From: a virus
Lineage: Duplodnaviria; Caudoviricetes
Direction: 5' to 3' (one strand)
IMG/VR virus record: IMGVR_UViG_3300025018_000003
Coordinates: 1 to 64,000 of that record
DNA: 64,000 bases
The notes beneath the pieces are model-generated. The model worked only from the letters and a program-made list of their open reading frames with translations. It was not told the origin of the DNA and searched no databases. The translations under genes and the position numbers were made by a program. Shown here in pieces: positions 9,429 through 27,575 of this stretch. Position 1 is the first letter of the stretch, and the number at the start of each line of letters is the position of its first letter.

Positions 9429-12400
9429 CGCCACTGGGCAGATCGACAACAACCCCACGTCGTCTGATCCCCCGGTCAAGCTCGGCAAGACCGCACCTCT
9501 GTTCCTCACCGACTCTCCGAGCTTCGGAACTGGCTTCGTCAGCTCAGCTGCAGGCCAGCTTCCGTCTATCGATGGGGTCAATCCGCAGGACTTGAACGCT
9601 CTCCTGGCCACCATCCGGGAGGTCGAGTCTTCGAATGATCCGTCAGCGTACAACATGCTGTACGGTGGGGACAGTTTTGAGGGCTACGACGCCCACCCCA
9701 ACATCTCGAAGAAGTTCAAGACGAAGTCCGGCACCGAGCTGAGCACCACTGCAGCCGGTGCCTACCAGTTCCTGAAGGGCACCTGGGATGAGTTCGCAGA
9801 GAAGGTTGGCATCACTGGCTTCTCTCCGCAGGAGCAGGACCAGGTAGCCATCCAGTTGCTGAGCGACAAGGGAGCCATCGATGCCCTGCGGGAAGGCAAC
9901 TACGAGCGGGCCCTTGAGATCGCAGGTGAGACGTGGGTGGGAATCGGTGGCAAGCTGGCTGCAGACGCGGACCAGCACTCCCCGGCCTTCTCTGTCTCTC
10001 TGGAGAACTTCCGCCAGTTCCGGTCAGGAGAGAAGGGGCTGGACCCCAAGGACTTCGACAAGTTCGTGGATGCCAGGATCCGACAGGAAGATGCTGAGAC
10101 CAGGATCTCGTCGTACGATCCACTGGCCCCTGACTTCGGCCCCAGCGCCTACACCCGACCTGGGAATGTGGAGGACTACGCCGACTACATGGAGTACATC
10201 TCTCCGTTCCAGGACATCGATAAGGTGCGGGCACGCAACCAGTCCTGGACGGAGCAGCTTGGCCATGGTCTTGGCCGGGTCATCCCCAATGCCATCCTGG
10301 GCATCGCCGAAGGAGCAGGCATCCTGCTGGACATCCCGGCGGTCTACAACACCATCACTGGAGAGGACGGGGACTACTCGAACTGGTTGACGGACATGGC
10401 GCAGGCAGGAAAGGAAGCCGTCAACGAGGCCCTTCCAGTCTATCGTGAGAATCCGTCCCAGGTCTGGAATCCTGGCGACTTCGCCTGGTGGGTGGAGAAC
10501 GGAGAAGGTCTGGTCGAGTCCATTGCCTCCTTCTACGTGCTCGGCGCAGGCCTGGCCACTGCCACTTCGAAGATCGCATCCGGTGCTGCACGCATGGCCG
10601 GATTCATGGCCAAGGGAACGCAGGCCGCCAGAGGCGTGGCCGCGGGTGCAACTGCGGCTGGACTGGCGTACTCCGAAGGAGCCATGGAGGCAGCGGACGT
10701 CTACAAGCAGGTCCTGGAGCAGGGCATCACCGACGATACTCCGTACGAGATCGCCAAGCTGAATGCTGCCGAGGCCGCCGCACACACCGTCAGGATCAAC
10801 ACCATCGTCAACACCGGTCTGAACTTGACCGGTACCATGGCCTTCTTCCGTCCTCTGCGTAGTCAGCGTGCCCTGACCCAGGCCGGGCTTGCCAGGAACG
10901 CCGGTGAGACCATGACGGAGTGGGCAGTCCGACTGAAGGAGAACCCAGCCACTCAGGGATTCATGGCTCGGCTCCTGCATGAGGCCGGGCGTGAAGCTCC
11001 TCAGGAAGCGCTTGAGGAACTCGTCAACGAAGTCTCCCGGGCAGAAGGTCTGTTCTATGGTCAGGAGGCCATGGGTTTGGCTGACAACCGGTCTCTCGGT
11101 GAGCGCATTGCTGACACCATCTTCACTCCCCAGGCAGCCCTTGCTGCAACGCTTGGTTCCATCGGGGGTGCAGGACAGGCTCTTGTCACCGGGCTGGCCC
11201 CTTCGATGAAGCTGGAGCAGGGTGACGGAGCGAAGAAGCCTGCCCTCTACAAGAGGCTGGAGTTCCGCGCAAGTCGGGAGAGTGCGGCCATCCGTGAGGC
11301 GCAGGTCGCCACCAGGAACGCCCTCGTCAAGCAGATCGACGCCCATGTTGATGCCCGTCAGCGCATGAAGGATGCTGCAGACAAGGGCGACGTGACGGCG
11401 TACAACAAGGCCCGCAACGACCTCTTCAACACCATCGCCGAGGACCGCATCACCTCCGGCATGGAAGAGCAACTTCTGATCGGCTTCGAAGAGATCTCCA
11501 AGATGACTCCAGAGCAGGCGGAAGAGGCTGGCTGGGACACCCGGCCTGAGTCCAAGTTCTACTACAAGAAGATGGCTCAGGAGCGGATCTCCAAGACCAA
11601 GCAGCTGACCAACCGCTGGAACGAACTTCAGGACACGTACGCTTTCCAGGACGACGAGCATCTGTCCCGTCTTCCGTACTTCATCTTCGGGGCCGAGGTC
11701 CAGAGGGATTCCCTGACTGATCAGCTGAAGGAAGTGGATGCTGACCTGGCTTCACTGAAGGAAGTCCAGTCCCGGATGGCACGCCTGGATGGAACCGAGA
11801 CCACCTACCAGGAAGTCCTGGACATCCAGAAGGAACAGGAAGCGCTCGTCAAGCAGCGCGAGGTCCTCGGCAAGAAGCTGGAGAGCATCCAGAAGCTGAT
11901 GGAGACCGAGGAGGGACGCAAGAAACTCCAGGCCAAGTACGGTACCTACGACATGGACTCCATCATGACCGCCATCCGGATGGCTGTCGGTGGACTGGAG
12001 CGTCGTGAGGAAGATCTTTCGAAGCGCGGCAAGGTCATCGAAGAAGCCATGACCGCCGCAGCTGATGGAGATCAGGCCAAGGCCCAGGCCAACCTGTCCA
12101 AGTGGCTGGCGGAGAACAAGTCGTACGCTGAAGCTGTCGAGACCCTTCAGGGTGACCGGGCAGCACTCTCCTCCGACCTGGAAGAGATCTCGTCCTCTCT
12201 GAAGGCTGTGACCGCTCGTCAGGGCCGCAAGAAGTTCACCGACGCCTTCAACGCGGAGTTGGATCGTCTGCAGAAGCTCCAGAAGGAGAAGGTGAAGGAG
12301 GCGATCAAGGCGGCTCCGACCAAGAAGGTCCTCGACAACATCAAGACCAAGATCGACCCTGAGAACAACCCGGACCTCGCTGACGAGATCGAGAAGCGCA

Positions 12401-14595
12401 ATGCTGAGCTGTTGCGTGATGAGATCAAGCGTGAGCGGGATCAGGCTCGTGAAGTCGACAAGCTTCTCGAAAGCCAGGGCAGGATCGAAGAGGGCAACGA
12501 GGAAGTCTTCGAGGTCAAGGACTTCGTGGATCCGCAGGAACGTCAGGAAGTCCTGGACTCGATCCTGGGCCAGGACAACTACATGGACGCCAACGATGTG
12601 TTCGGCATGGCGGCCAGATCCTTCCGTCTGGATGCCGAGTTCGTGAAGGAGGCCAAGGCCCACATCAAAAGGCTGCTCGACGCCAAGCGCAAGACCACTT
12701 CGAAGAACCAGGACGACGCCACCGAGAGCGGGGACAAGGGAACAGCCCCTCCCCCTCCACCCATCATCAACCGGTACTCTTCCCAGGACGACGTCGACGA
12801 CGACGTGGATCCCCGGGATGACACCACCACGGAGAAGACCAAGGACGGGAAGACCGTGGTCATCGGAGAGAAGGTTGTCGATGGCGCTCTGGCCTTTGCT
12901 CACAAGACGAAGGAGAGCCAGGAGGTCATCACCGATGAGAACGGTGAGCGCACCATCATGCAGGTGGACATCGGCGAAGAGCTGAGCAGCATGCTGATTC
13001 CGGAGACTCTGGACTACCGGAAGCTTCAGCCTGGAGACGGCCTCACCATCGAGCTGGATCTTGGATACGTGGATCCCAAGTCGGGAGAGACGTACAAGAG
13101 CCTGTCTGCTGGAGAGGATGGCTGGATGCATGCGCCCATGCGCATCGTCTACAAGGGCAAGACCGTCGGTTGGGTCCACGATGTCAACTGGGTAGACCGT
13201 CATGACAACGGCACCCCGGTGAACATCGCCGACACCGAAGGGAACTGGACCAAGCAGCGTCAGGCCATCCGCAAGATCCGCCGGTACATCTGGGAGAACA
13301 AGAGCGCCGAGACCGTGGTCCTGCACCATGGCATCGGTCACCTTTCGAAGTCCTACCTGCACGACGCCGACGGAAACATCGTCATGAAGAACGGACGTCC
13401 TGTGACCCAGCGTCGGAGCCTGGCGGAGAACACCGGGGACGACGTCAAGTTCGTGGTCTCCGTCAACGGTCAGTTCCGTGAGGGAGAAGACCCCACCACC
13501 AAGAAGCTGGTGAACAAGGAGGTCTTCCCAACCGGCCAGCCAGGCATCCTCATCCCGACCAGCGCTGCCGATGAGAAGGGCAAGCAGCTCTTCATCGCGG
13601 CCCCGATTTGGTTGCCAACTGTAGCAGACTCTAGTAACAACGGAGCCAAGGATCTGTTCGACATGATCCGGATCTTCCATTCTCCGTCTGCTGCGCAGGA
13701 AACGAAAGATCTTTCGGATGCAACAGGGTCCAAGTTCAACGTCAATGCGGATGTCAGCGCACTGCACGACATCTTGGTCAACTACTTCCTCTCCGGAGCC
13801 TTCAAGAAAGAGGACCTCAGGAACACGGAAGTGAGCACCAGTCGCATCTTCTTCCACTTCAGCCAGCAGACCGGGCATGTGAAGATCGCCAGGCACGGCG
13901 CGGCCAAGGGTGGAGGCATCATCTACACCACGGACGCCAGTCTGGGCAGGGATGGTGGAGCCTTCCGCTACATGTTCGAGACCGCGCCTGACGGATCCCT
14001 GCTGCATGCCAAGGCGATCCAGGAGATGATGGGAGACCTCTTCCTGAACCTCGACGTCGCCAGAGCCAACGGATCTTCGACGATGCGCCATGTTGGGCGT
14101 GACTCCGAAGGGAAGTGGACCGGCAAGAAGGTGAAGTACCGCGACTTCATGCGGGCCGCCTTCTCCACCACGATCAAGGGGACGCAGTTGGAGGATGGAC
14201 GGTGGGTCTACACCGAGCAGCCCACCATCCTCTTCGCCGATCCCACTGGTAAGACGAAGCGCCAGGTGGCCACTCCGACCCCGCAGAAGGGAGAGGGCAA
14301 GCCCCCGGAGAGCACGAAACCGCAGGTCGATGAAGAGGTAGAGAGCAAGGTCGATGACCTCTCTGTTGGAGAATCCGTAGAGACTGGCTCAAATGTTGCG
14401 TCAGATCTCGACAGCTTCCTCATGGGAGACGACGAGCTTGAGCAGCAAGGAACTGGCCGGGTAGAGACTGCCGCAGACTCTGCCGAAGCCAGGTCCACCA
14501 GCCCGTTCTTTTCGTATCCTTCTGCAGTTGGAAAGGAATCCCTCTCTGAACAGCTGCAGTCCAACGGTGATGTCCGCCTGACCTGCAAGGTGTAA
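9391..14595 (+). CDS. Large ejection protein (1734 aa) with a lambda-R/GH24-like lysozyme domain near the N-terminus, TM-like Gly/Ala segment and coiled coil
   Basis: aa ~65-187 read LLATIREVES...YNMLYGG...STTAAGAYQFLKGTWDE...FSPQEQDQVAIQLL, matching the lambda lysozyme/transglycosylase signature. A hydrophobic GA-rich block and a long coiled coil follow. Confidence 0.8.
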   Translation: MPAPPLFLTDQTDATGQIDNNPTSSDPPVKLGKTAPLFLTDSPSFGTGFVSSAAGQLPSIDGVNPQDLNALLATIREVESSNDPSAYNMLYGGDSFEGYDAHPNISKKFKTKSGTELSTTAAGAYQFLKGTWDEFAEKVGITGFSPQEQDQVAIQLLSDKGAIDALREGNYERALEIAGETWVGIGGKLAADADQHSPAFSVSLENFRQFRSGEKGLDPKDFDKFVDARIRQEDAETRISSYDPLAPDFGPSAYTRPGNVEDYADYMEYISPFQDIDKVRARNQSWTEQLGHGLGRVIPNAILGIAEGAGILLDIPAVYNTITGEDGDYSNWLTDMAQAGKEAVNEALPVYRENPSQVWNPGDFAWWVENGEGLVESIASFYVLGAGLATATSKIASGAARMAGFMAKGTQAARGVAAGATAAGLAYSEGAMEAADVYKQVLEQGITDDTPYEIAKLNAAEAAAHTVRINTIVNTGLNLTGTMAFFRPLRSQRALTQAGLARNAGETMTEWAVRLKENPATQGFMARLLHEAGREAPQEALEELVNEVSRAEGLFYGQEAMGLADNRSLGERIADTIFTPQAALAATLGSIGGAGQALVTGLAPSMKLEQGDGAKKPALYKRLEFRASRESAAIREAQVATRNALVKQIDAHVDARQRMKDAADKGDVTAYNKARNDLFNTIAEDRITSGMEEQLLIGFEEISKMTPEQAEEAGWDTRPESKFYYKKMAQERISKTKQLTNRWNELQDTYAFQDDEHLSRLPYFIFGAEVQRDSLTDQLKEVDADLASLKEVQSRMARLDGTETTYQEVLDIQKEQEALVKQREVLGKKLESIQKLMETEEGRKKLQAKYGTYDMDSIMTAIRMAVGGLERREEDLSKRGKVIEEAMTAAADGDQAKAQANLSKWLAENKSYAEAVETLQGDRAALSSDLEEISSSLKAVTARQGRKKFTDAFNAELDRLQKLQKEKVKEAIKAAPTKKVLDNIKTKIDPENNPDLADEIEKRNAELLRDEIKRERDQAREVDKLLESQGRIEEGNEEVFEVKDFVDPQERQEVLDSILGQDNYMDANDVFGMAARSFRLDAEFVKEAKAHIKRLLDAKRKTTSKNQDDATESGDKGTAPPPPPIINRYSSQDDVDDDVDPRDDTTTEKTKDGKTVVIGEKVVDGALAFAHKTKESQEVITDENGERTIMQVDIGEELSSMLIPETLDYRKLQPGDGLTIELDLGYVDPKSGETYKSLSAGEDGWMHAPMRIVYKGKTVGWVHDVNWVDRHDNGTPVNIADTEGNWTKQRQAIRKIRRYIWENKSAETVVLHHGIGHLSKSYLHDADGNIVMKNGRPVTQRRSLAENTGDDVKFVVSVNGQFREGEDPTTKKLVNKEVFPTGQPGILIPTSAADEKGKQLFIAAPIWLPTVADSSNNGAKDLFDMIRIFHSPSAAQETKDLSDATGSKFNVNADVSALHDILVNYFLSGAFKKEDLRNTEVSTSRIFFHFSQQTGHVKIARHGAAKGGGIIYTTDASLGRDGGAFRYMFETAPDGSLLHAKAIQEMMGDLFLNLDVARANGSSTMRHVGRDSEGKWTGKKVKYRDFMRAAFSTTIKGTQLEDGRWVYTEQPTILFADPTGKTKRQVATPTPQKGEGKPPESTKPQVDEEVESKVDDLSVGESVETGSNVASDLDSFLMGDDELEQQGTGRVETAADSAEARSTSPFFSYPSAVGKESLSEQLQSNGDVRLTCKV

Positions 14596-14597
14596 GC

Positions 14598-17500
14598 ATG
14601 TCGAAATGCCTGAACGGCATCGAATCCATTGAGTTCGATAGCCCCGTCGAGCGCCAGCGTTTCCAGGTCTTCCTGGAGTTGTACAATGAACTGGATCTAG
14701 CCTACGAGGCCTATCTGGCCGAGAAGGTAGAGCGTGACACTGTCCTGGCCGAAGAGCTTGGGAAGTACACGATACCTGGGTTCACCCCGGAGCAGCAGTA
14801 TCAGACCATCGCCGGGATCACCCAGGCGCTTGGTACTGCTATCTTCGAGGAGATCGAGAAGTCTGATGACGCTGAGGCGCAGGTAGAGAAGGTCTTCCTG
14901 GAGGAGTACAACGCCTTCCGGAAGAAGCTGACTCTGGCCCACAAGGACGGGAAGGTTGCTCTCACCAACGAGTACCTGAAGATCGTCCGCAACTGGGGAA
15001 TGATTGAAGGCATGGTGCTGGACAATCTCCGGGCTTTGGGACTGCGCATCTCCCGGAAGAAGGTCACGCCGACTGAAGAAGAGGCTGTGGTCGACGTCCA
15101 CACCGACGCCAACCTGGAGCTGCTGGAGCAGGTCAAGCAGCAGCTGGATGAGGAAGAGCGCTCTGAGGAAGGAGAACTCGTCGCCGAGGGAGAGGAGAGC
15201 ATTTACGAGCGGACCAAGTGGGATGATGCTGCCCGCTTCGAAATCCAGGCCAAGGACACAGCCACTGCCAGGCTGCGCCTGTTCATGGCTCGCGTACCTG
15301 AGATGATGATCGGAGAGGACGGCAAGCCTGCCCCGCGCTACGGCTACCTGGGCATGCAGAGGTACGTCCCCTTCGACACCATCTGGGAGAACACGACGGC
15401 CTATCTGTCGGAGATGGATCCCGACTTCGAAGCCTACGTGGGTGCTCTGCAGGACAGTGGCAATCCGAATCTGCAGCAGCTGGCCACTCTGCTCTCCACC
15501 GCTGACGAGCGCATCAAGGCCGAGTTCATGACTGCCATGTCGAAGTCCTACATCGACATGCTGATGGTGACGTGGGCCCCGAGATGGAAGGGCGGGAAGA
15601 TCATCGGCTACTCGATGAAGCTGATGCGCAGCAACCGCCACTCCGTGACCGACACCATCATCCAGTCCTGGATCACCAACCAGCAGACGTCTCCGCTGGT
15701 GACCTTCCAGAATGGTGAGATGGTCATCGATCAGAACACTGTCAAGGCCATCGAGGAGCGGTACACCAAGCGCTGGGAAACGCTTCGCAACCTGGCGCAG
15801 GAAGGCCCCATGGTCGAGCTGTTCCAGGAGACCCTGGCTGCCATGGGCATCACCATGGAGAAGGGACAGATCTACCGGTTCAAGGGCCAGATCGAGAAGA
15901 TCATGGGTGGCACCTGGCGGTACCATCTGGATCCGACGGAGGACAAGTCCTTCATCCGCAACCTCCTGGACGGCTTCAAGCCGCAGGAGTTGACCGGTGA
16001 AGAGACCGAGGGCGACGATGCTGACCGACAGGATGCGGAGGAAAACTACGGCCTCTTCGGTGTCAACAATCCTCTGATCGGCACCAAGGGGGGTAGGATC
16101 CAGAAGCTGGCCAAGTTCGTGGCCGACAACACGGATCACCTGATGACTCCGTCCTATCGGGACATCGAGAAGAAGCAGGTTCACCCGTACCAGGATAACC
16201 ACCTCCTGTCGACCACCATCCGGAAGCTGCGGAATGGTCCTGAGCATGCGGCGACGATGATGCAGTCCACCTTCAGCTCCCGCTCCCTCTGGGGCAAGGA
16301 GCTACAGGAGAGCCAGACCAATCGCAACCGTCTTTCAATGCAATACATGGACGGGATGCGGAAGCGTGGATCCCGTCGAGCCCAGAAGCGCAAGAACATG
16401 TCGGAGGCCGAGCAGCACCTGTATGCTCTCGGTCTCTTCCAGGGAGCGCAGCACACCCGGGTTGGAAAGGACCGAGTGATGGCGTCCTTCGTGACCCCCA
16501 CGCATTCCGACAAGACCGTCTCCCCCATCGTCAGCTTCATCAAGCGGAACATCAAGGTCACCATCGAGGAGGGCAAGGTCGTGGACCTGTCCGAAGACAC
16601 GATGGACATCATGATGAACGCGGTGAAGGCTGAGGCCGAGCGCATCATCTACTTCCAGGAGCACCTGGAAGGGAACATGGGTGACCAGTTCGAGGCCTAT
16701 CAGAAGGGAGCCAAGAAGTTCTTCCTGTCCCCGTGGTTGAACAAGGACCAGATGTCCCCGGCAGATGCCGCGGTGGTCTGGGGCCCGGACGGATCTCTGC
16801 TCATGACCGATGAGGCCATGGCGGTGATGGAGCGTCTGACGAAGGCCGCCTTCATCGCCGAGATCCAGGCAACGGTTGACCAGTGGCACGACCAGGGAGT
16901 CATCGTCAAGGGAGACGACGGCGAGGTGACTCCGCTGATGAACCAGCAGTACTTGGACCGGCACGCCAAGTACAAGGCCACGAAGGACAAGATCGCGTAC
17001 GCAGCCGCGGACTACGTTCTGAACTACGCGGTCTTCTACGCCGAGCACTTCATGCTCATCTCCGGAGATCCGGCGATCCACTTCAAGAAGGACGTCGAGA
17101 CCACGCTGGACAACATCCAGAAGCGACTGGCCAAGGACATCGCTCCGGTGCTGCAGGGCAAATGGGCCTCTGACGATACCTTCCGGAAGGTCACCATTGG
17201 CGACCGGGAGATCGACTCGGCAGAAAGGGATGCGTACCACAAGCTCCTCGGAGCCGACTTCTACAAGCAGATCACTACGACGGATGCGCAGGAGTACACC
17301 ACCCTGGAGGAGCACATCCGTGTGATGCGCTCCTATGGCAGGATCTCCGAGCAGGTCTTCAACTCCATCCTGGCGAAGATCGAGGCCAACCGCGGTGGCT
17401 ACTTCGAACTCACCAACGAGGAGAGGGACATCATCCTGCAGCCGATGAAGCCACTGACGGTCAACGTCAAGCACCTGGACTTCATCGAGGTGAACGGACA

Positions 17501-20500
17501 GCAGGTCCCGGTCCACATCAACAACATCGTCTACACGAAGTCGTCGTCCATCCCACTTGTACCTGAGCTGACGAAGGGCCTGCAGATCGACAAGCTCCGT
17601 GTGGCCATGGAGAACGAGAAGGTAGATCGCGCTGCTCACGTCTCTGCAGACAAGCTGGGCGTGAGCAAGTCCGTGAAGGTCTACACTGGCGCAGGTACGG
17701 TGAAGGACGAGATCAAGTTCGGACGTGAGGCAATCCAGATCCTGTCCCGTACAGGCTTCGGTCTGCAGCAGGAACTGCCGGTCAAGAAGCTGGAGATCGC
17801 CACCGTCTCCCAGATGAACAAGCTCCTGTTCGAAGGCATCCGGTCTGTCTCCGGATTCAAGTTCTACAGCAAGGAGTACACCGGCAAGGAACTGGAGTCC
17901 CTGAAGGAAGACATCCGCAAGCGCCTGTTCGAAGCAGGGGATGAAGCCCTGCGTCGTGAGCTTGGACTGGTGCCCAACGGAGACGGCTCCTACCGGTTCA
18001 CCAACCTCAAAACGGTCCAGCAGGTCCTCCTCCGGGAGGCCAAGAACCGCGGTTGGTCCAAGGCCGACATCGAGTCCCTGGCTCTGACGAAGGACGGCCA
18101 GTCCTTCATCATCCCGCTGGCGTTCTCGCATGCCTCACGGCAGATCGAGTCCCTGCTCCTGTCGATGATCAAGCGGTCCATCACCCACCAGAAGGTCTTC
18201 GGGAAGGGGTTGGTCCAGGCTTCGTCTGCAGGCTTCGACTCCGTCGGTGGTGCCACCAACATCGTCTGGGTGAAGGACCATGATCCGAAGCAGCGCCTCC
18301 GCCACCAGCGGACAGGGAAGAACGGCGAAGTGCTTCCGGCCCAGATCATCGTTCCCTGGTACTTCAAGGGCGTGAACCTGAAGGACTACGTGATCGAGGA
18401 CGAAAATGGTCACAAGATCCTCGACTTCGAGAAGCTGGATCCTGAAGTCCTGAAGATGATCGGAGCCCGTATCCCGAACCAGGGACACAGCTCCATGGGT
18501 GCCTTCGAGATCGTCGGCTTCACGGACCCGGCCTACAAGTCCATGGCCATCGTCCCTGACGAAATCGTGGCCCAGATGGGTTCCGACTTCGACATCGACA
18601 AGCTCTATGCCTACCTCTCCCAGTACGAGATCGACAAGGAGACCGGTAAGATCAGCCGACTGACTCTGGAGAAGGATCCGTCGAACAAGATGACGGTCCA
18701 GCAGCTGAAGCAGGTCTACGCCGATATCCACTGGGCGGTGCTCATGCATCCGGAGGTCATGAAGAAGGTCATGCTCCCGCTGGAGCGCCCTGACCTCAAG
18801 TCGGAGAAGCAGAAGATCCGCGATGCACGCGGAGAATCCGGGACTCTTTCTCCGCTCTTCGTGCGTAAGCAGATCGCCGACCACATCAAGAACCGGGCAG
18901 GCAAGGAGCTGGTTGCCACCTTCTCCCTGTTCTCGACGGCCCAGTCTGTGCTGCAGGAGTACAACCTGCGCTTCGACGTCGACCCCATGGGCACCTCGAT
19001 CTCCGATGCCTTCGTCTTCGGTGGCAAGCACTTCTACAAGCTCTCCGGGAACGGTGTCAGCTACTACAACGGAGAAGTCCGGACCAAGGCTCAGAATATC
19101 GCGTCACTGCAGTCGGCTGCCGTGGACAACGCCAAGGAGAACCTCCTCGGCTTCCTGAACCTGAACATGATCACGGCACCGGTTGCCGGTCTCATGGCCA
19201 TGCTGGAGACGGACAACGGCGAGGCGCTGTCCCTGGCGTACATCGCACGCTTCCTTTCCCAACCTGCAATCGTATCTGCAGTCGATCAAATCTCCCTGAT
19301 GCGATCCTCACTGCGCACAGAGTGGGCAGAGGATTCGATGGCGTACGCTGTCGACGTCACCATCAGCAAGATGTTCGAGGAGCTGTCCGGGACAACCGGT
19401 GCATCTGCCTCAGGAAAGTCCTTCTCAGAAGGACAACTTCTGGAGATGATCGAGAAGTGGGCCAAGCGGGACACGCTGACTCCAGAGGAGCAGCAGGAGC
19501 TGATGGCCGACCAGGTACAGGTGCTGGAGATCTTCAAGGCCCTGATGGGTGGAGCGGAGGACTTCGGGTCCTTCCGCAAGGCTCTTCTGCACGCTGACTC
19601 CAACGGAGCAGGCAAGTCTATGCCGCAGATGCGGGACCAGATGGAGGCGTGGGCCAACCTGGATTCCCATGGCATCACTTTCGACCAGGCTCTGTACGAG
19701 AGCGAGTACTACAAGGCCGGTGAGCACGCACTCTTGAACGGCCACAAGTACTTCAGTCAGCTGTTCGCCTACTCGTCGCCCTTCTTCCTGAAGACGAAGG
19801 AGATCCTGGAGGATTCCGTCGGTCTGGCGTTCTCTCCTGACGACGTCCAGGACCTGATGTCGAGCGCCAGATCCCTATTTTACACCCAGACCACTTCTTT
19901 CGGAGACGCTGCAGCTGAGCGTGCCCGGCTCACCGTGGGTGAGAACTCGCTGGCCAAGCGGGTGAAGGCCGCCAAGCAGACGGAGTGGGGCTCGCAGAAC
20001 TACTTCATCCAGCGCCTGCAGCCCAGCATCTCGCGGACGGAAGGGAAGCCGGACTTCGTCAACTACCAGAACTCCAAGGCCGCCAGGCTCGATGAGGAAG
20101 AGATCCTGAGAGCACTCTCCGGGATGATTACTTCCCCCGACCTGGCGCAACGTCAGCTGGCTTACGATCTAGTGGCCTACGCCTACCTGACCGGTGGCCG
20201 GTTTGGTCCCACGAGCTACGCCAGGCACATCCCAATGGCCTTCCTGAAGTACGTCAAGTTCGACGAACAGCTTCGGAACATGTCCATGGACGACACCATC
20301 CTGGCCCACCGGTTCGTGGAGCAGTACCTGCAGCACAACCCTACGTTGGCCAAGGACGTCCGGAAGAACAAGGAGATCATGAAGCGGATCCGGAAGGGCA
20401 ACCAGGTGCTCATCCATCCGGATGAAATCGGAATCCGCGAGGTCAAGGCTCCTGATGGAGGCCTGGTCCGTGCCTTCTATGTCTCCAAGGCCAGGGGTGC

Positions 20501-23500
20501 GTCCTCTCTGTGGATGAACCGCGGCGAGCAGGCAGACGGCTCCTTCCTCTTCGAAAAGGTCGACCTGCTTGGTGACTCGAACTTCTACGAGTACGATGCC
20601 CGGGCAGAGGTCGCCACCTCGGCTTTCCCGGACAACAAGGCGGTGAAGGCCAAGCCTGTTCCGAAGGAGACGAAGAAGCGCGTCGTCAATCCGCCATCAA
20701 GATCCAAGTCGAACAGCAACACTGATCGGACTGGTAACCCGAACACCATCGAGATCGGGTTCTCCCAGGAGGTCCGGCACCTGACGTCCATCGATTACGC
20801 CACCCAGACCGGCAAGGAGCGGGCTCTTTACGCTCTGGACAACGTGCTGTCGTCGAAGATGCAGGCCATCATCCCGACCCTGAAGGCGTCCATCGGGCTC
20901 CTGTCGGATGACTTCGTCTTCGACATCCGTGATCCGCTGCCCGGGGTGGCCGCGGAAGAGTGGATTATCGGGCAGTTCCGGCCTGACACCAACGAAGTGG
21001 TGATGATGCAGAACCGGATCAACTCCACGGCACTGGCCGACAAGGTCGTGGTCCACGAGCTGATCCATGCAGTCACAGTCGCTGCCCTGAAGGACATGAA
21101 CAACCCTCTGGTCAGGAGACTGGAGGAGGTCATGGATGGTATCCTGGAGTCGCTCTCTGCGGATCCTGCCTTCCGTGAGGCCTACAATGAGATGGTCCGC
21201 AACATGCGCCTGCCCTACGACCAGCGCAGGCCCATGACCAACCATGAGCGGACGGTCCTCTACCCGTTGACCAACCGGTATGAGTTCCTGGCGGCCCTGT
21301 TCGAGAACCCGGAGTTCGTGGAGTCGATCAAGGACGTGAAGATTGACGGCAAGTCGGTGCTGGACACCATCATCGAATTGCTGACCAACATCATCTCCAG
21401 TGTGGCCAAGCAGATGGGAGTGGACATCCCGGTTGACAGTGCAGTCCGTGAAGCCATGGCTTTGTCTCTGCAGGTCTTCCCGGCCTCTGATGGACCGCGT
21501 GATGTCTCTCCTGAGCCTGAGCCCGATGCTCTGGACGACTTCCAGTACTATGGGGCCCGCTACAAGATCATGCTCCGGAGGTCCGGGGAGACGGTGTACC
21601 CCTACGATGTCGTGGGCTACAAAGGCAAGGCCGACAGAAAGATGCAGCTCCTCCAAGCCTACATGCAGAACCCTGATGTCGATCCCCAGAACGGCAAGCA
21701 GTGGCGGAATGCGCAGCCGGATGAAGACGTTGATGAAGAGACGGAGGTCCAGGACTTCGTCGACCTCTCAGGATCCATGCGGAAGACGTCGTTCTTTGCC
21801 AAGGACGCAGCCAAGGCCGCCCTGGCCAACAAGATGATCGGACGTGGATCTGAACGGTCCTCCAGCCAGGCCTACGCCGACGCAGCTGGTGACAAGGCCA
21901 ATGTGGGCTCGTACTCGGCAACTGACCGGGTCTTCATCACCGCGGAAGGTAATCGGGCTGGTCGTGTGGCTCCTGACTTCGAGGAAATCGACAGGGCCCT
22001 GGCCGCAGGTGCGACCATCATCACGGACAGCAAGGAGAACCGTGAGCGGGCCTTCAACCTCGGCGAGAGGGAAGTGGCCGAGCATCTGGCCAAGAAGGGG
22101 TACGAAGAGGTGGGAGCTGGTATCTGGAAGCCGAAGACTGGTAAGCCTGCCGTCACACCGACGGTGAAGCCGGAGCCTGCACCTCCTGACACCGGTGATG
22201 ACACCAAGTACGCTGACCTCGGGAACGGGCGCAAGGCCAACAAGCAGCAGCGCCAGGCTCTCAAGAAGCTGGACAAGTTCCTCTCGGGTGAGAAGCGCAT
22301 CTTCGTGCTGGTGGGCCGCGGTGGTACCGGCAAGACCACGATCATCGCCAAGGCACTGGAGATGGCCAAGGGTCGTGACATGGCTGGTGCAGTCATCTCT
22401 CACGCGGCAGCCAACCAGTTGCGCAACTCCATCCCGGAGACGATGACGGTGGCGAGCCTCCTGGGTATCAAGCTCGACGAGGTCGAAGGCACCTTCCGCA
22501 TCGACGAGTGGGCCCGCAAGCAGTACGGGATCCCCATCGAGAAGCTGGACGTCATCGTCATCGACGAGACTTCGATGATCTCGAAGGGGATCATGGAGGA
22601 GATGCTGAAGCACATGAAGCCCAAGGCGAAGATCATCTTCATGGGCGACAACGTGCAGATTCCGCCGATCTCCAACGATCCTGCGGATGCCATCCAGTCC
22701 TCCACTTTCGATGCAGCCCGTGGAGAGGAGTTCCACAAGCTCACGGAGCGCATGCGGTCTGGTGAGAACCACCCGCTTGTGCCCATCTCCGACCTGCTGG
22801 CAGAGAACATCGAGTCGAAGAATCCGGAGCTGCGTGCCATCAAGATGATGCACCGGAAGACTAAGGTCGACAAGGACGGCAACGGCATCATCTTCGAGTC
22901 TGACGTGGACAAGGTGATCGAAGCGTACCTGGCTGACCTTGCCCGGATGGGTGAATCCGCGGATCCTCTGCGCTGGGCACGCATCGTGACCTTCAACAAC
23001 CACAACCACCCGAATGCTCAGTCGGTCATGAGTCTGAACACCCTGATCCGTGAGCGGATCTACGGTGAGCAGGCGGCCAAGGCCCGGTTCATCCCCGGGG
23101 AGATCATCACCACCTACGCTCCGTACAACGGAGAACAGGTTGGAGACAGCCCCAAGTACGGGCAGACCGAGAACACGGTGTCTTTCAAGGTCGTATCCTT
23201 GTCTGAGCCGCGGCCTCTCCGCATCAACGAGCACATCATGTACCGCGGAGAGCGCTTCAGCGCCGTCGGCAGTGTCATGATGCAGGAGTTGACGGTGGAG
23301 GACGAGAAGGGCAAGACCCAGATCTTCCCTGTCGTGGCCACCGGATATGAGTCCGAGTACAAGAAGTTCGTCGCCGACGCCATGGGCACTGGAGAACGGC
23401 GTGCTCCTGGAGGCCTGTTCTACAAGATCTCGGCACACTTCCTGGACGCTCAACCTGCGTACGCAATCACTGCCCACAAGGCTCAGGGCCAGACCTTCAC

Positions 23501-23888
23501 AAATGTGGTGGTCATGGAGGACAACATCCTCGGCCAGTCCAACGGCAACAGCATTCGGGCCAAGAACCAGATCCTTTACACCGCCATCACGAGGGCCAGC
23601 CATAAGGTGACCATCCACTCGGTGGTGAACAAGGGAGAGACCCACTCATACAAGCCGACGAAGAGAGAGCAGACGGACCTGCCTGATCGACCCTCTGTGG
23701 GAGAGTCTCTGGCAGACAGCACGCCGCCGAACATGCAGGACCTCAAGGAGGAAAGCCCCTTCCTGATGCCAGCCTCTCTCGATTTCGGTATAACCATTGA
23801 TGTGGTCATGCGTCAGATGACCAAGGAGCAGCGTGAGCTGTTCCGGAAGTTGCGCAACGAAGGCTTCATCACAACGAAGTGTCAGTAG
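14598..23888 (+). CDS. Virion-encapsidated RNA polymerase (crAss/phi14:2 gp66-like) fused to zincin-like and RecD/Dda-like SF1 helicase domains, 3096 aa
   Basis: RIPNQGHSSM and GSDFDIDKL (~18585) are the crAss vRNAP catalytic motifs; HELIH at ~21054; Walker A GRGGTGKTT at ~22314, then DETSM, GDNVQIPP, YAITAHKAQGQTF and LYTAITRAS. Confidence 0.9.
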   Translation: MSKCLNGIESIEFDSPVERQRFQVFLELYNELDLAYEAYLAEKVERDTVLAEELGKYTIPGFTPEQQYQTIAGITQALGTAIFEEIEKSDDAEAQVEKVFLEEYNAFRKKLTLAHKDGKVALTNEYLKIVRNWGMIEGMVLDNLRALGLRISRKKVTPTEEEAVVDVHTDANLELLEQVKQQLDEEERSEEGELVAEGEESIYERTKWDDAARFEIQAKDTATARLRLFMARVPEMMIGEDGKPAPRYGYLGMQRYVPFDTIWENTTAYLSEMDPDFEAYVGALQDSGNPNLQQLATLLSTADERIKAEFMTAMSKSYIDMLMVTWAPRWKGGKIIGYSMKLMRSNRHSVTDTIIQSWITNQQTSPLVTFQNGEMVIDQNTVKAIEERYTKRWETLRNLAQEGPMVELFQETLAAMGITMEKGQIYRFKGQIEKIMGGTWRYHLDPTEDKSFIRNLLDGFKPQELTGEETEGDDADRQDAEENYGLFGVNNPLIGTKGGRIQKLAKFVADNTDHLMTPSYRDIEKKQVHPYQDNHLLSTTIRKLRNGPEHAATMMQSTFSSRSLWGKELQESQTNRNRLSMQYMDGMRKRGSRRAQKRKNMSEAEQHLYALGLFQGAQHTRVGKDRVMASFVTPTHSDKTVSPIVSFIKRNIKVTIEEGKVVDLSEDTMDIMMNAVKAEAERIIYFQEHLEGNMGDQFEAYQKGAKKFFLSPWLNKDQMSPADAAVVWGPDGSLLMTDEAMAVMERLTKAAFIAEIQATVDQWHDQGVIVKGDDGEVTPLMNQQYLDRHAKYKATKDKIAYAAADYVLNYAVFYAEHFMLISGDPAIHFKKDVETTLDNIQKRLAKDIAPVLQGKWASDDTFRKVTIGDREIDSAERDAYHKLLGADFYKQITTTDAQEYTTLEEHIRVMRSYGRISEQVFNSILAKIEANRGGYFELTNEERDIILQPMKPLTVNVKHLDFIEVNGQQVPVHINNIVYTKSSSIPLVPELTKGLQIDKLRVAMENEKVDRAAHVSADKLGVSKSVKVYTGAGTVKDEIKFGREAIQILSRTGFGLQQELPVKKLEIATVSQMNKLLFEGIRSVSGFKFYSKEYTGKELESLKEDIRKRLFEAGDEALRRELGLVPNGDGSYRFTNLKTVQQVLLREAKNRGWSKADIESLALTKDGQSFIIPLAFSHASRQIESLLLSMIKRSITHQKVFGKGLVQASSAGFDSVGGATNIVWVKDHDPKQRLRHQRTGKNGEVLPAQIIVPWYFKGVNLKDYVIEDENGHKILDFEKLDPEVLKMIGARIPNQGHSSMGAFEIVGFTDPAYKSMAIVPDEIVAQMGSDFDIDKLYAYLSQYEIDKETGKISRLTLEKDPSNKMTVQQLKQVYADIHWAVLMHPEVMKKVMLPLERPDLKSEKQKIRDARGESGTLSPLFVRKQIADHIKNRAGKELVATFSLFSTAQSVLQEYNLRFDVDPMGTSISDAFVFGGKHFYKLSGNGVSYYNGEVRTKAQNIASLQSAAVDNAKENLLGFLNLNMITAPVAGLMAMLETDNGEALSLAYIARFLSQPAIVSAVDQISLMRSSLRTEWAEDSMAYAVDVTISKMFEELSGTTGASASGKSFSEGQLLEMIEKWAKRDTLTPEEQQELMADQVQVLEIFKALMGGAEDFGSFRKALLHADSNGAGKSMPQMRDQMEAWANLDSHGITFDQALYESEYYKAGEHALLNGHKYFSQLFAYSSPFFLKTKEILEDSVGLAFSPDDVQDLMSSARSLFYTQTTSFGDAAAERARLTVGENSLAKRVKAAKQTEWGSQNYFIQRLQPSISRTEGKPDFVNYQNSKAARLDEEEILRALSGMITSPDLAQRQLAYDLVAYAYLTGGRFGPTSYARHIPMAFLKYVKFDEQLRNMSMDDTILAHRFVEQYLQHNPTLAKDVRKNKEIMKRIRKGNQVLIHPDEIGIREVKAPDGGLVRAFYVSKARGASSLWMNRGEQADGSFLFEKVDLLGDSNFYEYDARAEVATSAFPDNKAVKAKPVPKETKKRVVNPPSRSKSNSNTDRTGNPNTIEIGFSQEVRHLTSIDYATQTGKERALYALDNVLSSKMQAIIPTLKASIGLLSDDFVFDIRDPLPGVAAEEWIIGQFRPDTNEVVMMQNRINSTALADKVVVHELIHAVTVAALKDMNNPLVRRLEEVMDGILESLSADPAFREAYNEMVRNMRLPYDQRRPMTNHERTVLYPLTNRYEFLAALFENPEFVESIKDVKIDGKSVLDTIIELLTNIISSVAKQMGVDIPVDSAVREAMALSLQVFPASDGPRDVSPEPEPDALDDFQYYGARYKIMLRRSGETVYPYDVVGYKGKADRKMQLLQAYMQNPDVDPQNGKQWRNAQPDEDVDEETEVQDFVDLSGSMRKTSFFAKDAAKAALANKMIGRGSERSSSQAYADAAGDKANVGSYSATDRVFITAEGNRAGRVAPDFEEIDRALAAGATIITDSKENRERAFNLGEREVAEHLAKKGYEEVGAGIWKPKTGKPAVTPTVKPEPAPPDTGDDTKYADLGNGRKANKQQRQALKKLDKFLSGEKRIFVLVGRGGTGKTTIIAKALEMAKGRDMAGAVISHAAANQLRNSIPETMTVASLLGIKLDEVEGTFRIDEWARKQYGIPIEKLDVIVIDETSMISKGIMEEMLKHMKPKAKIIFMGDNVQIPPISNDPADAIQSSTFDAARGEEFHKLTERMRSGENHPLVPISDLLAENIESKNPELRAIKMMHRKTKVDKDGNGIIFESDVDKVIEAYLADLARMGESADPLRWARIVTFNNHNHPNAQSVMSLNTLIRERIYGEQAAKARFIPGEIITTYAPYNGEQVGDSPKYGQTENTVSFKVVSLSEPRPLRINEHIMYRGERFSAVGSVMMQELTVEDEKGKTQIFPVVATGYESEYKKFVADAMGTGERRAPGGLFYKISAHFLDAQPAYAITAHKAQGQTFTNVVVMEDNILGQSNGNSIRAKNQILYTAITRASHKVTIHSVVNKGETHSYKPTKREQTDLPDRPSVGESLADSTPPNMQDLKEESPFLMPASLDFGITIDVVMRQMTKEQRELFRKLRNEGFITTKCQ

Positions 23889-26800
23889 ATGAGCTGCTCC
23901 ATCGTCGATGTTCTGGCTCCCAACGGAGAGCCCTCACTCCTCTTCCAGGATCTCCTCAACACGGTAGGGGACCCATCCCGGGCCCTCTCCCTGTACCTGG
24001 ATCTCAAACTGGCCGGACCAGGTGAGGCCAGGGTGGACGAGAACGGGGAGGTGCGGCTGGCTGGTGTGCTCAACAACTCCGGTCTGAGTCCGGTAGAGGT
24101 GGACGCATTCCTGTCCCACCGTCCGGATGTCCATTCCATGCCTGCAGCTGGACCGGCGAAGGAGTCCAAGACCCGCAGACGCCGGATGACCCTCCCTGAG
24201 GAGGTCGTGGGTGTGGAGCGGATGATCAACCTGACCATCAACCGGATCAAGGACGCCAGGGATGCGGCGAAGGACTCGGACGTCAAGGCTACGTTCACCG
24301 ATCAGTTGGCTAAGCTGAAGGACCAGAGGAACAGGATCTTCTGGTCTGACACGCTGGATCCGCTGAAGAAGGTGGCTGAAGAGCAGCTGCAGTGGGCTGA
24401 GAAGATCATCAGCTCCCGGAATCCTTCGAAGCAGAGCCTCAGGCTGGCCATCGATCTCGTGAATGCGTGGTCCTGGGAAACCACCAGCGCCTTCCTCTCA
24501 CCTGGGAACGACGTTGCAGACTCCCTGTGGGCCGAGACCTTCTCTGAGATCTCCGAGCAAGCCCACCGTCTCACGCTGAGCGTGAACGCGGCCATCGTCA
24601 AGAACATCCAGAAGACGATGCGGCGGTCTGGCATCGAGGTCACGACCAGTGAGCTGACCACTCAGTACGAGATCGGCTTCCTGCGCCGGACCCTGTTCGA
24701 CCTCTCCACGGTGGACAGCAAGCTGGCCCAGTGGATCGATGGTACCCTGAAGCGTGCTGCCAGGAACCAGGCCGAGAACCTGCGCCAGATCTCCAGGAAG
24801 CTCGGAGAGATGTCGGAGGGTGTGGACCAATCGAAGCTTCTGCAGCGGGACTTGCTGGGCAACTTGACAGGCAACCTGATCACGCCGTACTCGGCTGCCT
24901 ACCTGGAGGATCTCCGCCGGGCCCAGTGGTCTCTGCAGATCAAACTGGACAACGCCGCCCGGGCCTCGACTCCTGAGGCTTCGGACACTCTGGCCGCGGC
25001 TGCCTACCGGACCCACTACTCCCGCAGGCGCAACGTCGACATCGCCATCGACATCCGGAAGCTGCGTGACCCGGCATCCCGGGCTGCCTACGAGCAGTAC
25101 CTCGTGGACCAGCTGGGCCCAGATGCCGCGGACAACGCCATCGATGATGCTGAGCGTGCATACACCGACTACCTCAACGAGAAGGACGAGGCACGGTCTC
25201 GGTTCATGTCTGAGGTCACCGGTGGGACGGCAGAGCTGAAGATCGTTGGGGGCAAGCGGGAACTGAACAGCGAGTACGTGGAGCGCCGTATGAAAGAGTG
25301 GGAGCAGGCCAACTCCCCGGAACAGTACATGTCTGAGTTCTACGGCAAGGGACTCAAGCAGTATCTCTCCACCGACGGCCACCGGTTTGCTGTCCACGTC
25401 CCGCGAAAGACCAACGCAGCTGGACAGACAACCAACTACTACGACTCCGCCTACGACAACCTCACGGAGAAGGAGCGCGAGTTCCTGGACTACGTCCTCA
25501 CGTTGTCCTCGAACCTCCTCTCGTACCTGCCCTCCAGTCTGACCCGGGATCTGGGTGCAGGATTCCTTCCCGTTGTCCAGAAGACACTGACCGAGCGGGT
25601 GCTCGGGAACGGCAGCTGGGCTGACCTCGACATGAAGGGCGGATTTGATCAGGCCAGGGAAGAGCTGCTCAGCTCTTTCGTGGACCAGCAGGTCGTCGCC
25701 CTCGGCAAGCAGCAGGAGAAGGCCCGGAAGACGGTGAACCCGGCCACCGGTGACGAGATCAGGAAGATTCCTGTCGGCTTCATCCAGCACGGTAATGTGC
25801 GGCGGAAAAAAGGGGAAAGCGACGAAGCCTTCTCCAAGAGGGTCCAGGAGGCCATGGATGGACGGAGCTTCGACATCGTGCGTGTGATGGAGATGTTTGC
25901 TGGCATGTCCATCAACTACCACCACATGTCCCAGGTCGAGGACAAGGTGTTGCTGGCCCAGCGCATCGTGAATGAGGCTGAGGAGGCACGTCGTCGTGGT
26001 GGGAGCCCTGTCTACGACTTCACCGGCAAACTGGTGACCCGTCGGGATGGACGTACCCACCTCAAGGACATGGTCCAGTACGCTATCGATGGCATGCTGT
26101 ACGGCCAGAAGAGGAAGGAAGACGAGTGGGTGACCAATACCGCGGTCTACTCCCTCAATCCGCTGACCAACCACAAGAAGTCCCGGCAGGCCTCCGAGAT
26201 CCGACGTCAGGCCAACCTGCTGGACCAGCAGCGTGACGAGGGCACCATCGATGAGAAGGCCTACAAGGAAGCCCGGGGAGCGCTGGAAAAGCAGTACCTG
26301 GAGCTGAATGGTCGTCGTCTCTCCGTCGGGAAGTCCCTGGACAACCTGCTGAAGTTCACGCAAGCCAAGGGGATGGGCTGGAACCTGACAGCAGGCATCG
26401 CCAACGTCGGCTTCGGTGTCCTTTCGAACGTGATCCACTCGGCGGCCAACGTCGACTTCAACGAGACCGAGCTGCTGACTGCCACTCGGATCATGCTCAA
26501 GGCCCGGACGAATCCCAAGTCCAAGGCCGCGGCGATCATCAAGCTGCTGGACGTCCTCTTCGAGATCACGGAGATCGGTTACGGTAAGAACGCTGAGCGG
26601 GCCAAGTTCAAGAAGATCAGCTGGATCACGAATCCCTTCGAAGTCCAGCGCCGTACAGAGTTCTTCCTGCAGGGCACGTCTGTCGTGGCTCAGCTCCTGC
26701 ACCAGAAGATGAAGGACAAGGATGGGAACGAAGTCTCCCTGTGGGACGCGTTCACCAACGAAGGAGAGTGGGACGTCGAGAAGATGGGCCCGCAACCGGC

Positions 26801-27575
26801 GGAGTGGAAGTTCAGACTGGACTCGGATGAGCAGAACGAGTTCACGAAGACTCGTGACCGCATCATTGGGGTCAACAAGAAGCTCCACGGTAACTACGAC
26901 CCCAACTCCCTGGTCGAGGCCAAGAAGTGGGTGGCCGGGCGCATGCTCCTCATGTTCCGGTCCTGGATGGCTGAAGGATTCGAGTGGCGCTTTGCCCACG
27001 AGCACTTCGACCAGCAGCTTGGCCGCACCATCAAGGGTCGCTGGCTCTCCTACCGTGACCTGGCCCGGGAGCATGGTGCAGGCAAGACAGCCCAGCTCAT
27101 GCTGCGCATGTTGCTCAACAAGAAGGGCCAGTTGGCCATCGAAGGGAAGCCGCTCAGTGAGTTGGACATGCAGAACATGCGGTCCAACATCATGGAGATC
27201 CAGTTTTACATCGCGTTGACCGCCTTGACGGTCATGTTGAAGGCCGGTCTGCAGGACGACGACGAGGAAGAAGAAGGATTGGGGATTGCAACTGCCCGAA
27301 TCCTGATCTCCCAGCTGTACAGAGTCGAGGCGGACATCGTGTTCTACGCCTCTCCGGACACCATGCTGGAGATCTCGAAGAACTCGATCCCTGCCATGAA
27401 GACCATTGCGGACTTCCAGGCGGCCATGTCCTCATCGATTGCCTACATCCGGAAGGGAGAGGAGTACACCGGTCTGGATCCCTGGTACAAGTGGATGAAG
27501 GCCTTCCCGATTGGGACGCAGGGCTACAAGATGTGGTACATGGGTACCCACGACGTCAACTGGGGCGACCTCTAA
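23889..27575 (+). CDS. Large ejection/cargo protein, 1228 aa
   Basis: Abuts the vRNAP stop. N-terminal MSCSIVDVLAPNGEPSLLFQDL; C-terminal LHGNYD...GRMLLMFRSWMAEGFEWRF...GRTIKGRW motifs, recalled from terminal cargo proteins of crAss-like phages. Confidence 0.75.
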   Translation: MSCSIVDVLAPNGEPSLLFQDLLNTVGDPSRALSLYLDLKLAGPGEARVDENGEVRLAGVLNNSGLSPVEVDAFLSHRPDVHSMPAAGPAKESKTRRRRMTLPEEVVGVERMINLTINRIKDARDAAKDSDVKATFTDQLAKLKDQRNRIFWSDTLDPLKKVAEEQLQWAEKIISSRNPSKQSLRLAIDLVNAWSWETTSAFLSPGNDVADSLWAETFSEISEQAHRLTLSVNAAIVKNIQKTMRRSGIEVTTSELTTQYEIGFLRRTLFDLSTVDSKLAQWIDGTLKRAARNQAENLRQISRKLGEMSEGVDQSKLLQRDLLGNLTGNLITPYSAAYLEDLRRAQWSLQIKLDNAARASTPEASDTLAAAAYRTHYSRRRNVDIAIDIRKLRDPASRAAYEQYLVDQLGPDAADNAIDDAERAYTDYLNEKDEARSRFMSEVTGGTAELKIVGGKRELNSEYVERRMKEWEQANSPEQYMSEFYGKGLKQYLSTDGHRFAVHVPRKTNAAGQTTNYYDSAYDNLTEKEREFLDYVLTLSSNLLSYLPSSLTRDLGAGFLPVVQKTLTERVLGNGSWADLDMKGGFDQAREELLSSFVDQQVVALGKQQEKARKTVNPATGDEIRKIPVGFIQHGNVRRKKGESDEAFSKRVQEAMDGRSFDIVRVMEMFAGMSINYHHMSQVEDKVLLAQRIVNEAEEARRRGGSPVYDFTGKLVTRRDGRTHLKDMVQYAIDGMLYGQKRKEDEWVTNTAVYSLNPLTNHKKSRQASEIRRQANLLDQQRDEGTIDEKAYKEARGALEKQYLELNGRRLSVGKSLDNLLKFTQAKGMGWNLTAGIANVGFGVLSNVIHSAANVDFNETELLTATRIMLKARTNPKSKAAAIIKLLDVLFEITEIGYGKNAERAKFKKISWITNPFEVQRRTEFFLQGTSVVAQLLHQKMKDKDGNEVSLWDAFTNEGEWDVEKMGPQPAEWKFRLDSDEQNEFTKTRDRIIGVNKKLHGNYDPNSLVEAKKWVAGRMLLMFRSWMAEGFEWRFAHEHFDQQLGRTIKGRWLSYRDLAREHGAGKTAQLMLRMLLNKKGQLAIEGKPLSELDMQNMRSNIMEIQFYIALTALTVMLKAGLQDDDEEEEGLGIATARILISQLYRVEADIVFYASPDTMLEISKNSIPAMKTIADFQAAMSSSIAYIRKGEEYTGLDPWYKWMKAFPIGTQGYKMWYMGTHDVNWGDL

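Follow-up and report, generated by a model that had tools for sequence, protein, structure and literature searches.

How several megadaltons of cargo protein are stored and delivered by crassviruses, the most abundant human gut phages, is an open question. We analyzed a window of 64,000 nucleotides (nt), positions 1 to 64,000 of the IMG/VR virus record IMGVR_UViG_3300025018_000003, in which three adjacent genes encode giant proteins, referred to here as modules A (1734 amino acids (aa)), B (3096 aa, a crAss-type virion RNA polymerase (vRNAP)) and C (1228 aa). The few cysteines (Cys) of these proteins lie only at the ends where one protein faces the next, and the question raised by the locus is what such facing cysteines do. 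In the cryo-electron microscopy (cryo-EM) map of crAss001, the cargo, including the giant RNA polymerase, is not resolved (PMC10172136).

Cysteine positions in the three giant proteins

Modules A, B and C are separated by tight gene borders, TAA-gc-ATG between A and B and TAG-ATG between B and C. Their 6058 residues hold four cysteines, one in module A (residue 1732), two in module B (residues 4 and 3095) and one in module C (residue 3), and every one of them lies at most 4 residues from a junction-facing end. Because 12 other genes of the window average 1.06% Cys, about 64 would be expected in a protein set of this length, and the probability that four cysteines placed at random fall one into each 5-residue facing end is about 1e-11. 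The initial annotation had reported these positions, and the translations showed them to be exact. It had also described the outer ends of the chain and two upstream cargo proteins as Cys-free, and indeed the sole cysteines are at junction-facing ends and the 550-aa and 728-aa proteins hold 0 Cys. The tail LxxxGxhxxxC that it ascribed to both donor C-termini is found as LQSNGDVRLTC in module A and LRNEGFITTKC in module B.

The identity of the three proteins was examined by homology. In module A, residues 85-188 match lambda lysozyme (1AM7/3D3D, E value 1.3e-13) and are of lambda type by sequence, and residues 53-187 match a PHROG endolysin (E 5.3e-26). Module B is homologous to the catalytic core of the phi14:2 vRNAP (6VR4_A, E 1.2e-26, chain residues 737-1416), and the polymerase core profile is matched by phi14:2 gp077 at E 3.1e-85. 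The DFDxD motif of crAss-type vRNAPs is present in the sequence GSDFDIDK at residues 1328-1335, with D1330, D1332 and D1334 nearly invariant (at least 90% of sequences in alignment A1, 20 homologues). Module C is homologous to phi14:2 gp076 and to crAss001-like gp49; it matched no Pfam or PHROG family, and its N-terminal 450 aa gave an all-helical AlphaFold model (predicted local distance difference test score 76, predicted template modelling score 0.44). The three phi14:2 counterparts (GenBank gp078, gp077 and gp076) are virion proteins by tandem mass spectrometry, gp077 being the vRNAP of PDB entry 6VR4, and crAss001 gp47, gp49 and gp50 are cargo proteins detected in particles (PMC10172136).

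Judged by these matches, the best explanation of the window genes is that they encode a crAss-like phage's set of RNA-polymerase cargo proteins, consisting of a lysozyme-bearing protein, the vRNAP and a third, helical protein. The three giants are most likely packed and injected by the phage, and packaging and ejection of module B would follow from its homology to phi14:2 and crAss001 proteins detected in virions by mass spectrometry. The crAss-like assignment of the window is based on the polymerase block and its synteny; by polymerase core, the nearest cultured relatives are the Flavobacterium phages Fpv, at about 32% identity, with no Crassvirales placement on record.

Terminal cysteine pairs across related loci

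The 1228-aa protein alone as query retrieved no related loci from viral contigs, and polymerase alignment A1 was used instead. In the 80 IMG/VR loci retrieved with it, plus-strand open reading frames (ORFs) were called from the first ATG, and at each junction of adjacent ORFs of at least 700 aa a Cys at the upstream C-end and a Cys at the downstream N-end were each scored as present or absent. Both were present in 59 pairs and neither in 40, while an N-end Cys alone was found in a single pair (L066, where the upstream Cys is at -7) and a C-end Cys alone in none. Counting orthologues, split and fused cases included, was the check suggested in the initial annotation, and terminal Cys pairs do co-occur at gene junctions. 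Nearly all loci follow one grammar, in which module A has Cys at its C-end, module B at both ends and module C at its N-end, and the outer ends of the chain are Cys-free. At 72 non-redundant junctions, the donor Cys was one of the last four residues in 70 and the acceptor Cys was at residue 3-6 in all 72.

The rest of these proteins is nearly devoid of cysteine. Of the 437,336 residues that make up giants of at least 1000 aa, 262 (0.060%) were Cys, and 157 of these stood at termini; the other-strand genes of the same contigs had 1.33% Cys. The search for module B homologues yielded 293 giant proteins. Among 120 vRNAP homologues of 2100-5400 aa, 92 had a Cys among their last 4 residues, in many cases the sole Cys of about 4000 aa, and no protein had more than 4.

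The cysteines are also conserved at the protein ends. In alignments A3 and A5, which cover the N-terminal 110 or 450 aa of module C, no column except Cys3 is invariant; close homologues (42-61% identity; P0002-P0005) have a single Cys, always at residue 3, and a homologue of 25% identity has it at residue 5. Cys1732 of module A is conserved in L009, L001 and L003, whose orthologues terminate in VTCKV. The vRNAP-C junction keeps both cysteines down to 25% identity and across 37%-58% guanine-cytosine (GC) content, and in contigs with module C homologues at 37%, 45%, 47% and 53% GC the upstream polymerase terminates in Cys. The cultured phage phi14:2 has an identical terminal-Cys pattern: its first protein ends in TIC, the polymerase starts with MAC and ends in ECK, and the third protein starts with MSC. 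A neighbouring lysine (Lys) would lower the pKa of a thiol. Lys stood directly before the donor Cys in 30 of 72 cases and directly after it in 22 of 56, compared with a background of 9.2%, so that a reactive thiolate would be favoured. On these comparisons the terminal-Cys pattern is strongly selected, and a functional pairing between each C-terminal Cys and the N-terminal one of the following protein is strongly supported.

Whether this selection acts on the proteins or on the nucleotide sequence was considered next to the gene arrangements. In the window, Cys codons stand on both sides of the stop-start junction, within 15-23 nt, and a stop codon directly follows the Cys codon at 16 of 72 junctions, which might befit take-off and landing codons for ribosome hopping of the T4 gene 60 type, or a coupling or reinitiation signal. 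However, PhiCrAssBcn18 (crAss001-like) and DAC15 encode the A-like protein on one strand and its two partners on the other; even so, a single Cys is retained in the A-like protein, three residues from its C-end, and in the polymerase both Cys5 and a C-terminal Cys are retained. The partner genes are separated by an entire gene of 157-165 codons in 11 loci, and the reading-frame relation of the paired Cys codons is random (20/27/25 at the 72 junctions). Opposite-strand partners, intervening genes and random frame together argue that the signal acts on proteins, not on DNA or translation. Moreover, each downstream gene has its own ATG 2-5 codons ahead of the Cys, and a translation-level feature would leave the absence of Cys elsewhere in the proteins unexplained; we regard such a feature as very improbable. 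Programmed ribosome bypass of the T4 gene 60 type, which needs nearby codons on one mRNA, was rejected given the opposite strands and intervening genes.

The pairs come and go with the joints between the proteins. Twenty-one of the 28 vRNAP homologues without a C-terminal Cys are fusions with the module C family, as identified by profile, and their junction is Cys-free; 11 of these 21 hold zero Cys in 3800-5400 residues. Loci encoding a single polypeptide of 4743, 5005 or 6677 aa have 0-1 Cys in each. Split and fused states were mapped on a tree inferred by maximum likelihood from 72 polymerase cores. The state changed at least 6 times at the B-C junction and at least 11 times at the A-B junction, giving 4 and 8 phylogenetically independent pairs, respectively, on supported branches. 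At B-C, Cys tracked the split state in a mean of 3.9 of the 4 pairs. At A-B it did so in about 5.5 of the 8, with no difference in the rest (sign test about 0.03 for A-B alone), and at neither junction did a pair go the opposite way. Furthermore, 8 loci encode the polymerase core as two ORFs, divided at a third, non-homologous site, and Cys is found at both new ends. In an alignment of fused with split junctions, too weak to rely on, the tail motif and the first module C helix appear colinear and the Cys-bearing segment is replaced by a short linker.

A probable disulfide tether and its alternatives

A bond of this kind has been seen in another phage. In the cryo-EM structure of the cyanopodophage A4 pre-ejectosome, Cys1715 of gp27 and Cys5 of gp26 are joined by a disulfide, next to a C-terminal helix that docks into the partner protein (PNAS 2025, PMC12002296). 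The A-4L record gives a single Cys, at those positions, for both gp27 (1717 aa) and gp26 (1114 aa), and none for gp29. As in the window, the ejection-protein genes are adjacent, the sole Cys of the upstream protein stands 3 residues from the C-end, that of the downstream protein at residue 5, and a lytic transglycosylase/peptidase protein is encoded in the same block; the window likewise has a lone Cys near a C-end facing a lone Cys at residue 3-6. Unlike the window, A4 has one link between two proteins, and its chain does not include a vRNAP. In the A4 paper the bond is seen as stabilising the structure locally, and neither the rule nor a link to gene fission or fusion is described (PMC12002296).

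Because cryo-EM showed exactly such a bond in A4, a disulfide is the best chemical reading of the facing cysteines, and the terminal cysteines of adjacent cargo proteins probably form a disulfide tether running from A through B to C. The initial annotation had proposed such an inter-protein link; its functional pairing is strongly supported by the comparisons, while the disulfide itself stands as the best chemical reading only. Its statement that nothing of the kind had been described needs qualifying in view of the A4 gp27-gp26 bond reported in 2025. Full-text literature searches on cysteine or disulfide in crAss-like cargo found no description; the phi14:2, crAss001 and N4 papers do not mention these cysteines, and those on phi14:2 and crAss001 mention no cargo-cargo bond. 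The bond type is thus already known from A4, and what is new is the order-wide rule, the multi-link chain that includes the polymerase, and the tie to gene fission and fusion, together with the phylogenetic contrasts, the core-split case and the ferritin-like genes at junctions of some relatives.

Other ejection systems were compared. The Crassvirales cargo blocks (phi14:2 gp078-gp077-gp076; crAss001 gp47, gp50 and gp49) have a homologous polymerase and third protein and the identical terminal-Cys pattern, whereas the window polymerase has an extra helicase domain and the GC content of the window genome, 58%, exceeds the 29-37% of these cultured phages. The giants of T7 and N4 are likewise ejected via a short tail, and T7 gp16, like module A, has an annotated endolysin domain. 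The N4 vRNAP gp50 (3500 aa), N4 gp51 and gp52, and T7 gp15 and gp16 (1318 aa) contain zero Cys (L094, L095), and T7 gp14 contains one, at residue 2. In contrast to the window, these phages have no facing terminal Cys pairs, and the N4 polymerase is one chain, unrelated to the crAss type (PMC13434306). Cys-free ejected proteins seem to be general in short-tailed phages, and the terminal pairs seem to stand out against them.

We infer that the tether would work as follows. In the virion, the lone C-terminal Cys of each protein would bond the single Cys that the following protein has at residue 3-4. Modules A, B and C would then form a single covalent thread, close to linear, with 6058 residues and a mass of roughly 670 kDa (estimated from the average residue mass), as the split-gene equivalent of the single polypeptides of 4700-6700 residues in relatives. 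Such a thread would secure 1:1:1 packing and would exit N-to-C, lysozyme end first, a direction proposed earlier for crAss001 gp45, and thiol reductases of the host cytoplasm would then free the polymerase. With the rest of each protein kept Cys-free, no other crosslink could arise in proteins that partly unfold through the tail. The strictly terminal position of the cysteines would also be explained, since the side stubs would be only 1-5 residues long and still fit a narrow channel. Bonding in crAss-like particles, equal packing, ordered threading and reductive release are inferred steps, and the model of ordered threading with reductive release, taken in full, is tentative and rather unlikely to hold in every part. 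The same caution applies to its order-wide form, which we offer as a possibility below even chances: terminal disulfides would serve as replaceable peptide bonds, so that a cargo of 5000-9000 residues is re-joined however it is cut, packed 1:1:1 and threaded N-to-C with the lysozyme first, cytoplasmic reduction would both free and switch on the vRNAP, and in some lineages a ferritin-like helper would make or protect the bond. Disulfide-linked two-chain AB toxins offer an analogy, as a single inter-chain bond is kept during translocation through a narrow channel and reduced in the target cytosol, where the enzyme is released. They are an analogy only: the proteins are unrelated to those of the window, the translocation machine is different, and reductive release is here a proposal.

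Two other uses of the cysteines were weighed against the tether. In the first, the facing cysteines would jointly coordinate a metal or an iron-sulfur centre, in a site to which several copies of the termini contribute, a clamp without a disulfide. Ferritin-like genes stand at the junctions of 13 loci and keep ferroxidase-type residues, hinting at iron or redox chemistry. However, each terminus offers a single Cys with no conserved His, Cys, Asp or Glu alongside, the Cys being the sole invariant column; most genomes, that of the window included, are without a ferritin-like gene; and the same arrangement in A4 is a plain disulfide. A metal site is accordingly improbable. In the second, the terminal Cys would bond the portal, tail, capsid, a homodimer partner, a lipid or a cofactor, and co-occurrence would reflect a common anchoring system. 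Tail and portal-vertex proteins of crAss001 virions do use other inter-subunit disulfides (PMC10172136), and a few giants carry an unpaired N-terminal Cys (L032, L047). An external anchor, however, would predict neither that Cys occurs only at ends facing another chain member nor that both cysteines vanish jointly when modules fuse, and we consider bonding to such partners unlikely.

Several points weigh against the disulfide tether. The cytoplasm in which virions are assembled is reducing, and the habitat of gut crassviruses is free of oxygen. Searches of the window genome found neither a thioredoxin nor a ferritin gene; an Erv1/ALR-type oxidase search of that genome gave no match, and its control matched nowhere either. 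The bond has been seen directly only in A4, and for crAss-like phages it would follow by analogy. Neither sequence nor fold similarity to A4 gp26/gp27 was detected: phmmer comparison of these two with the window proteins returned nothing at E <= 1, the module C-family profile gave only noise against the PDB, and a Foldseek search of PDB and a VIA wide search with the model of module C residues 1-450 returned only generic helical bundles. Some split junctions are Cys-free on both sides (L061, L080), so the tether is not obligatory, and Cys is one-sided or displaced in L023, L032/L047, L039/L081 and L074. Finally, fused polyproteins are known, and Drobysheva et al. suggested that fused forms are cleaved into separate proteins; the argument that a disulfide replaces a peptide bond would be weakened by such cleavage.

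If true, a covalent tether running head to tail would account for packing in fixed stoichiometry, for ejection in order and for the free fission and fusion of genes in the cargo block, and would provide a redox trigger for polymerase release. The combination of Cys-free ejected giants with Cys only at facing ends would also be a simple sequence signature by which sets of ejected proteins, and the order within them, could be recognised in uncultured phages. Three cultured systems, phi14:2, crAss001 and DAC15, lend themselves to a direct test of the tether.

Features of the locus, ferritin-like genes and exceptions

The coordinates of the features are collected in Table 1. The record of the window genome is complete, at 90.7 kb, and has terminal repeats, and the window DNA has 58% GC, with the large ORFs forming a plus-strand block.

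Table 1. Features of the window, and ferritin-like genes and core-split polymerases in related loci (loci given as locus:positions)
Feature	Position	Strand	Basis or remark
Cargo-like protein, 550 aa, Cys-free	5589..7241	+	0 Cys in translation; upstream of chain
Cargo-like protein, 728 aa, Cys-free	7242..9428	+	0 Cys in translation; upstream of chain
Module A, 1734 aa, first chain member, N-terminal lysozyme-like domain	9391..14595	+	Translation, PHROG and PDB matches
Lambda-lysozyme-like domain (lytic transglycosylase type), module A residues 85-188	9643..9954	+	1AM7/3D3D match
Cys1732 codon TGC, third residue from module A C-terminus	14584..14586	+	Sole Cys; tail LTCKV-stop
Module B, 3096-aa crAss-type vRNAP, middle chain member	14598..23888	+	6VR4 homology; zincin motif; inserted superfamily 1 (SF1) helicase
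Cys4 codon of vRNAP (MSKC)	14607..14609	+	Conserved in P0008, P0009, L009, L015
Catalytic DFDID motif, module B residues 1330-1334	18585..18599	+	Motif read in translation
HELIH zincin-type motif, module B residues 2153-2157	21054..21068	+	Motif only
RecD/Dda-like SF1 helicase domain, module B residues 2545-3014	22230..23639	+	Pfam, PHROG
Cys3095 codon TGT, penultimate vRNAP residue (TKCQ-stop)	23880..23882	+	Sole invariant column of C-terminal 90-aa alignment A2
Module C, 1228-aa all-alpha protein, last chain member	23889..27575	+	Homology, predicted helices
Cys3 codon TGC of module C (MSC)	23895..23897	+	Sole module C Cys
Ferritin-like genes between giants	L057:13096-13581, L049:3613-4107, L037:15912-16403, L071:17000-17485, L079:13060-13542		
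Further ferritin-like genes between giants	L040, L069, L070, L072, L077, L080		
Ferritin-like genes directly after polymerase	L039:16914-17408, L081:18035-18532		
Core-split loci	L049, L057, L069, L070, L072, L077, L079, L080 (e.g. L057:4283-13096 and 13589-20770)		Ferritin-like gene between halves

The extra helicase domain of module B was matched by Pfam AAA_30 (E 9.8e-22), UvrD_C_2 (E 1e-9) and PHROG 325 (E 7.6e-62). Both this domain and the HELIH motif sit ahead of the conserved, Cys-bearing C-terminal tail. The L009/L001 orthologue is 2415 aa long, 681 aa shorter than module B, and has no helicase Pfam family on record, and the 2907-aa orthologue of L003 has the helicase Pfam families. 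The helicase is also carried by many distant vRNAP homologues. Upstream of the chain, the 550-aa protein matched no PHROG or Pfam family and has syntenic Cys-free counterparts of 540-780 aa in nearly all related loci; the syntenic counterparts of the 728-aa protein in relatives are likewise Cys-free (0.05% Cys).

The ferritin-like genes encode proteins of 157-165 aa. In 11 loci they lie exactly between Cys-ended and Cys-started giants and in a further 2 immediately downstream of the polymerase gene; across the 80 loci they are confined to two different split sites. Five of the proteins, scanned against Pfam, matched PF00210 (E 1e-12 to 1e-17), and the others were found by a profile built from the family; the ferroxidase-type E/Y/ExxH/E/Q residues are retained. 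The ferritin-like protein could be a redox or iron helper of the Cys link or a packaged cargo, or its gene could have landed at the sole available intergenic sites.

Individual loci depart from the common arrangement. The giants L032:473-20146 (6557 aa) and L047:2111-19744 (5877 aa) start with MCP (Cys2), and the protein upstream is Cys-free, so that no partner is visible. In L039:9551-16906 and L081:9560-18031 the polymerase has no terminal Cys and carries a CxC pair 23-29 residues from its C-end; downstream follow the ferritin-like gene, a protein of about 400 aa with a CxxxxC pair and then a Cys-started giant. In L074 (2880-7163) four genes lie between chain members, among them one for an 849-aa protein with 12 Cys and one, directly upstream of a polymerase with Cys at residue 6, for a 235-aa protein whose only Cys is 3 residues from the C-end.

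Two loci contain ORFs whose boundaries may not reflect the genes. The apparent exceptions in L058 are ORFs that overlap out of frame, probably through assembly frameshifts; at L058:19006-19356 lies the gene for a 117-aa DUF5856 protein (PF19174, E 4.9e-17), flanked by a Cys-ended ORF of 745 aa and a Cys-started ORF of 1460 aa. In L076 the polymerase core is cut between the ORF at 5792-11833 and the next one, of 2013 aa and 2873 aa, both Cys-free and overlapping by 38 nt, and this cut is either a frameshift, programmed or in error, or a split without a Cys pair.

The GC content of the window (58%) was also compared with that of its relatives, which is 45-53% in those with about 60% identical proteins and 27-37% in cultured crAss-like phages. 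The terminal cysteines are retained despite the GC shift between the window genome and its relatives.

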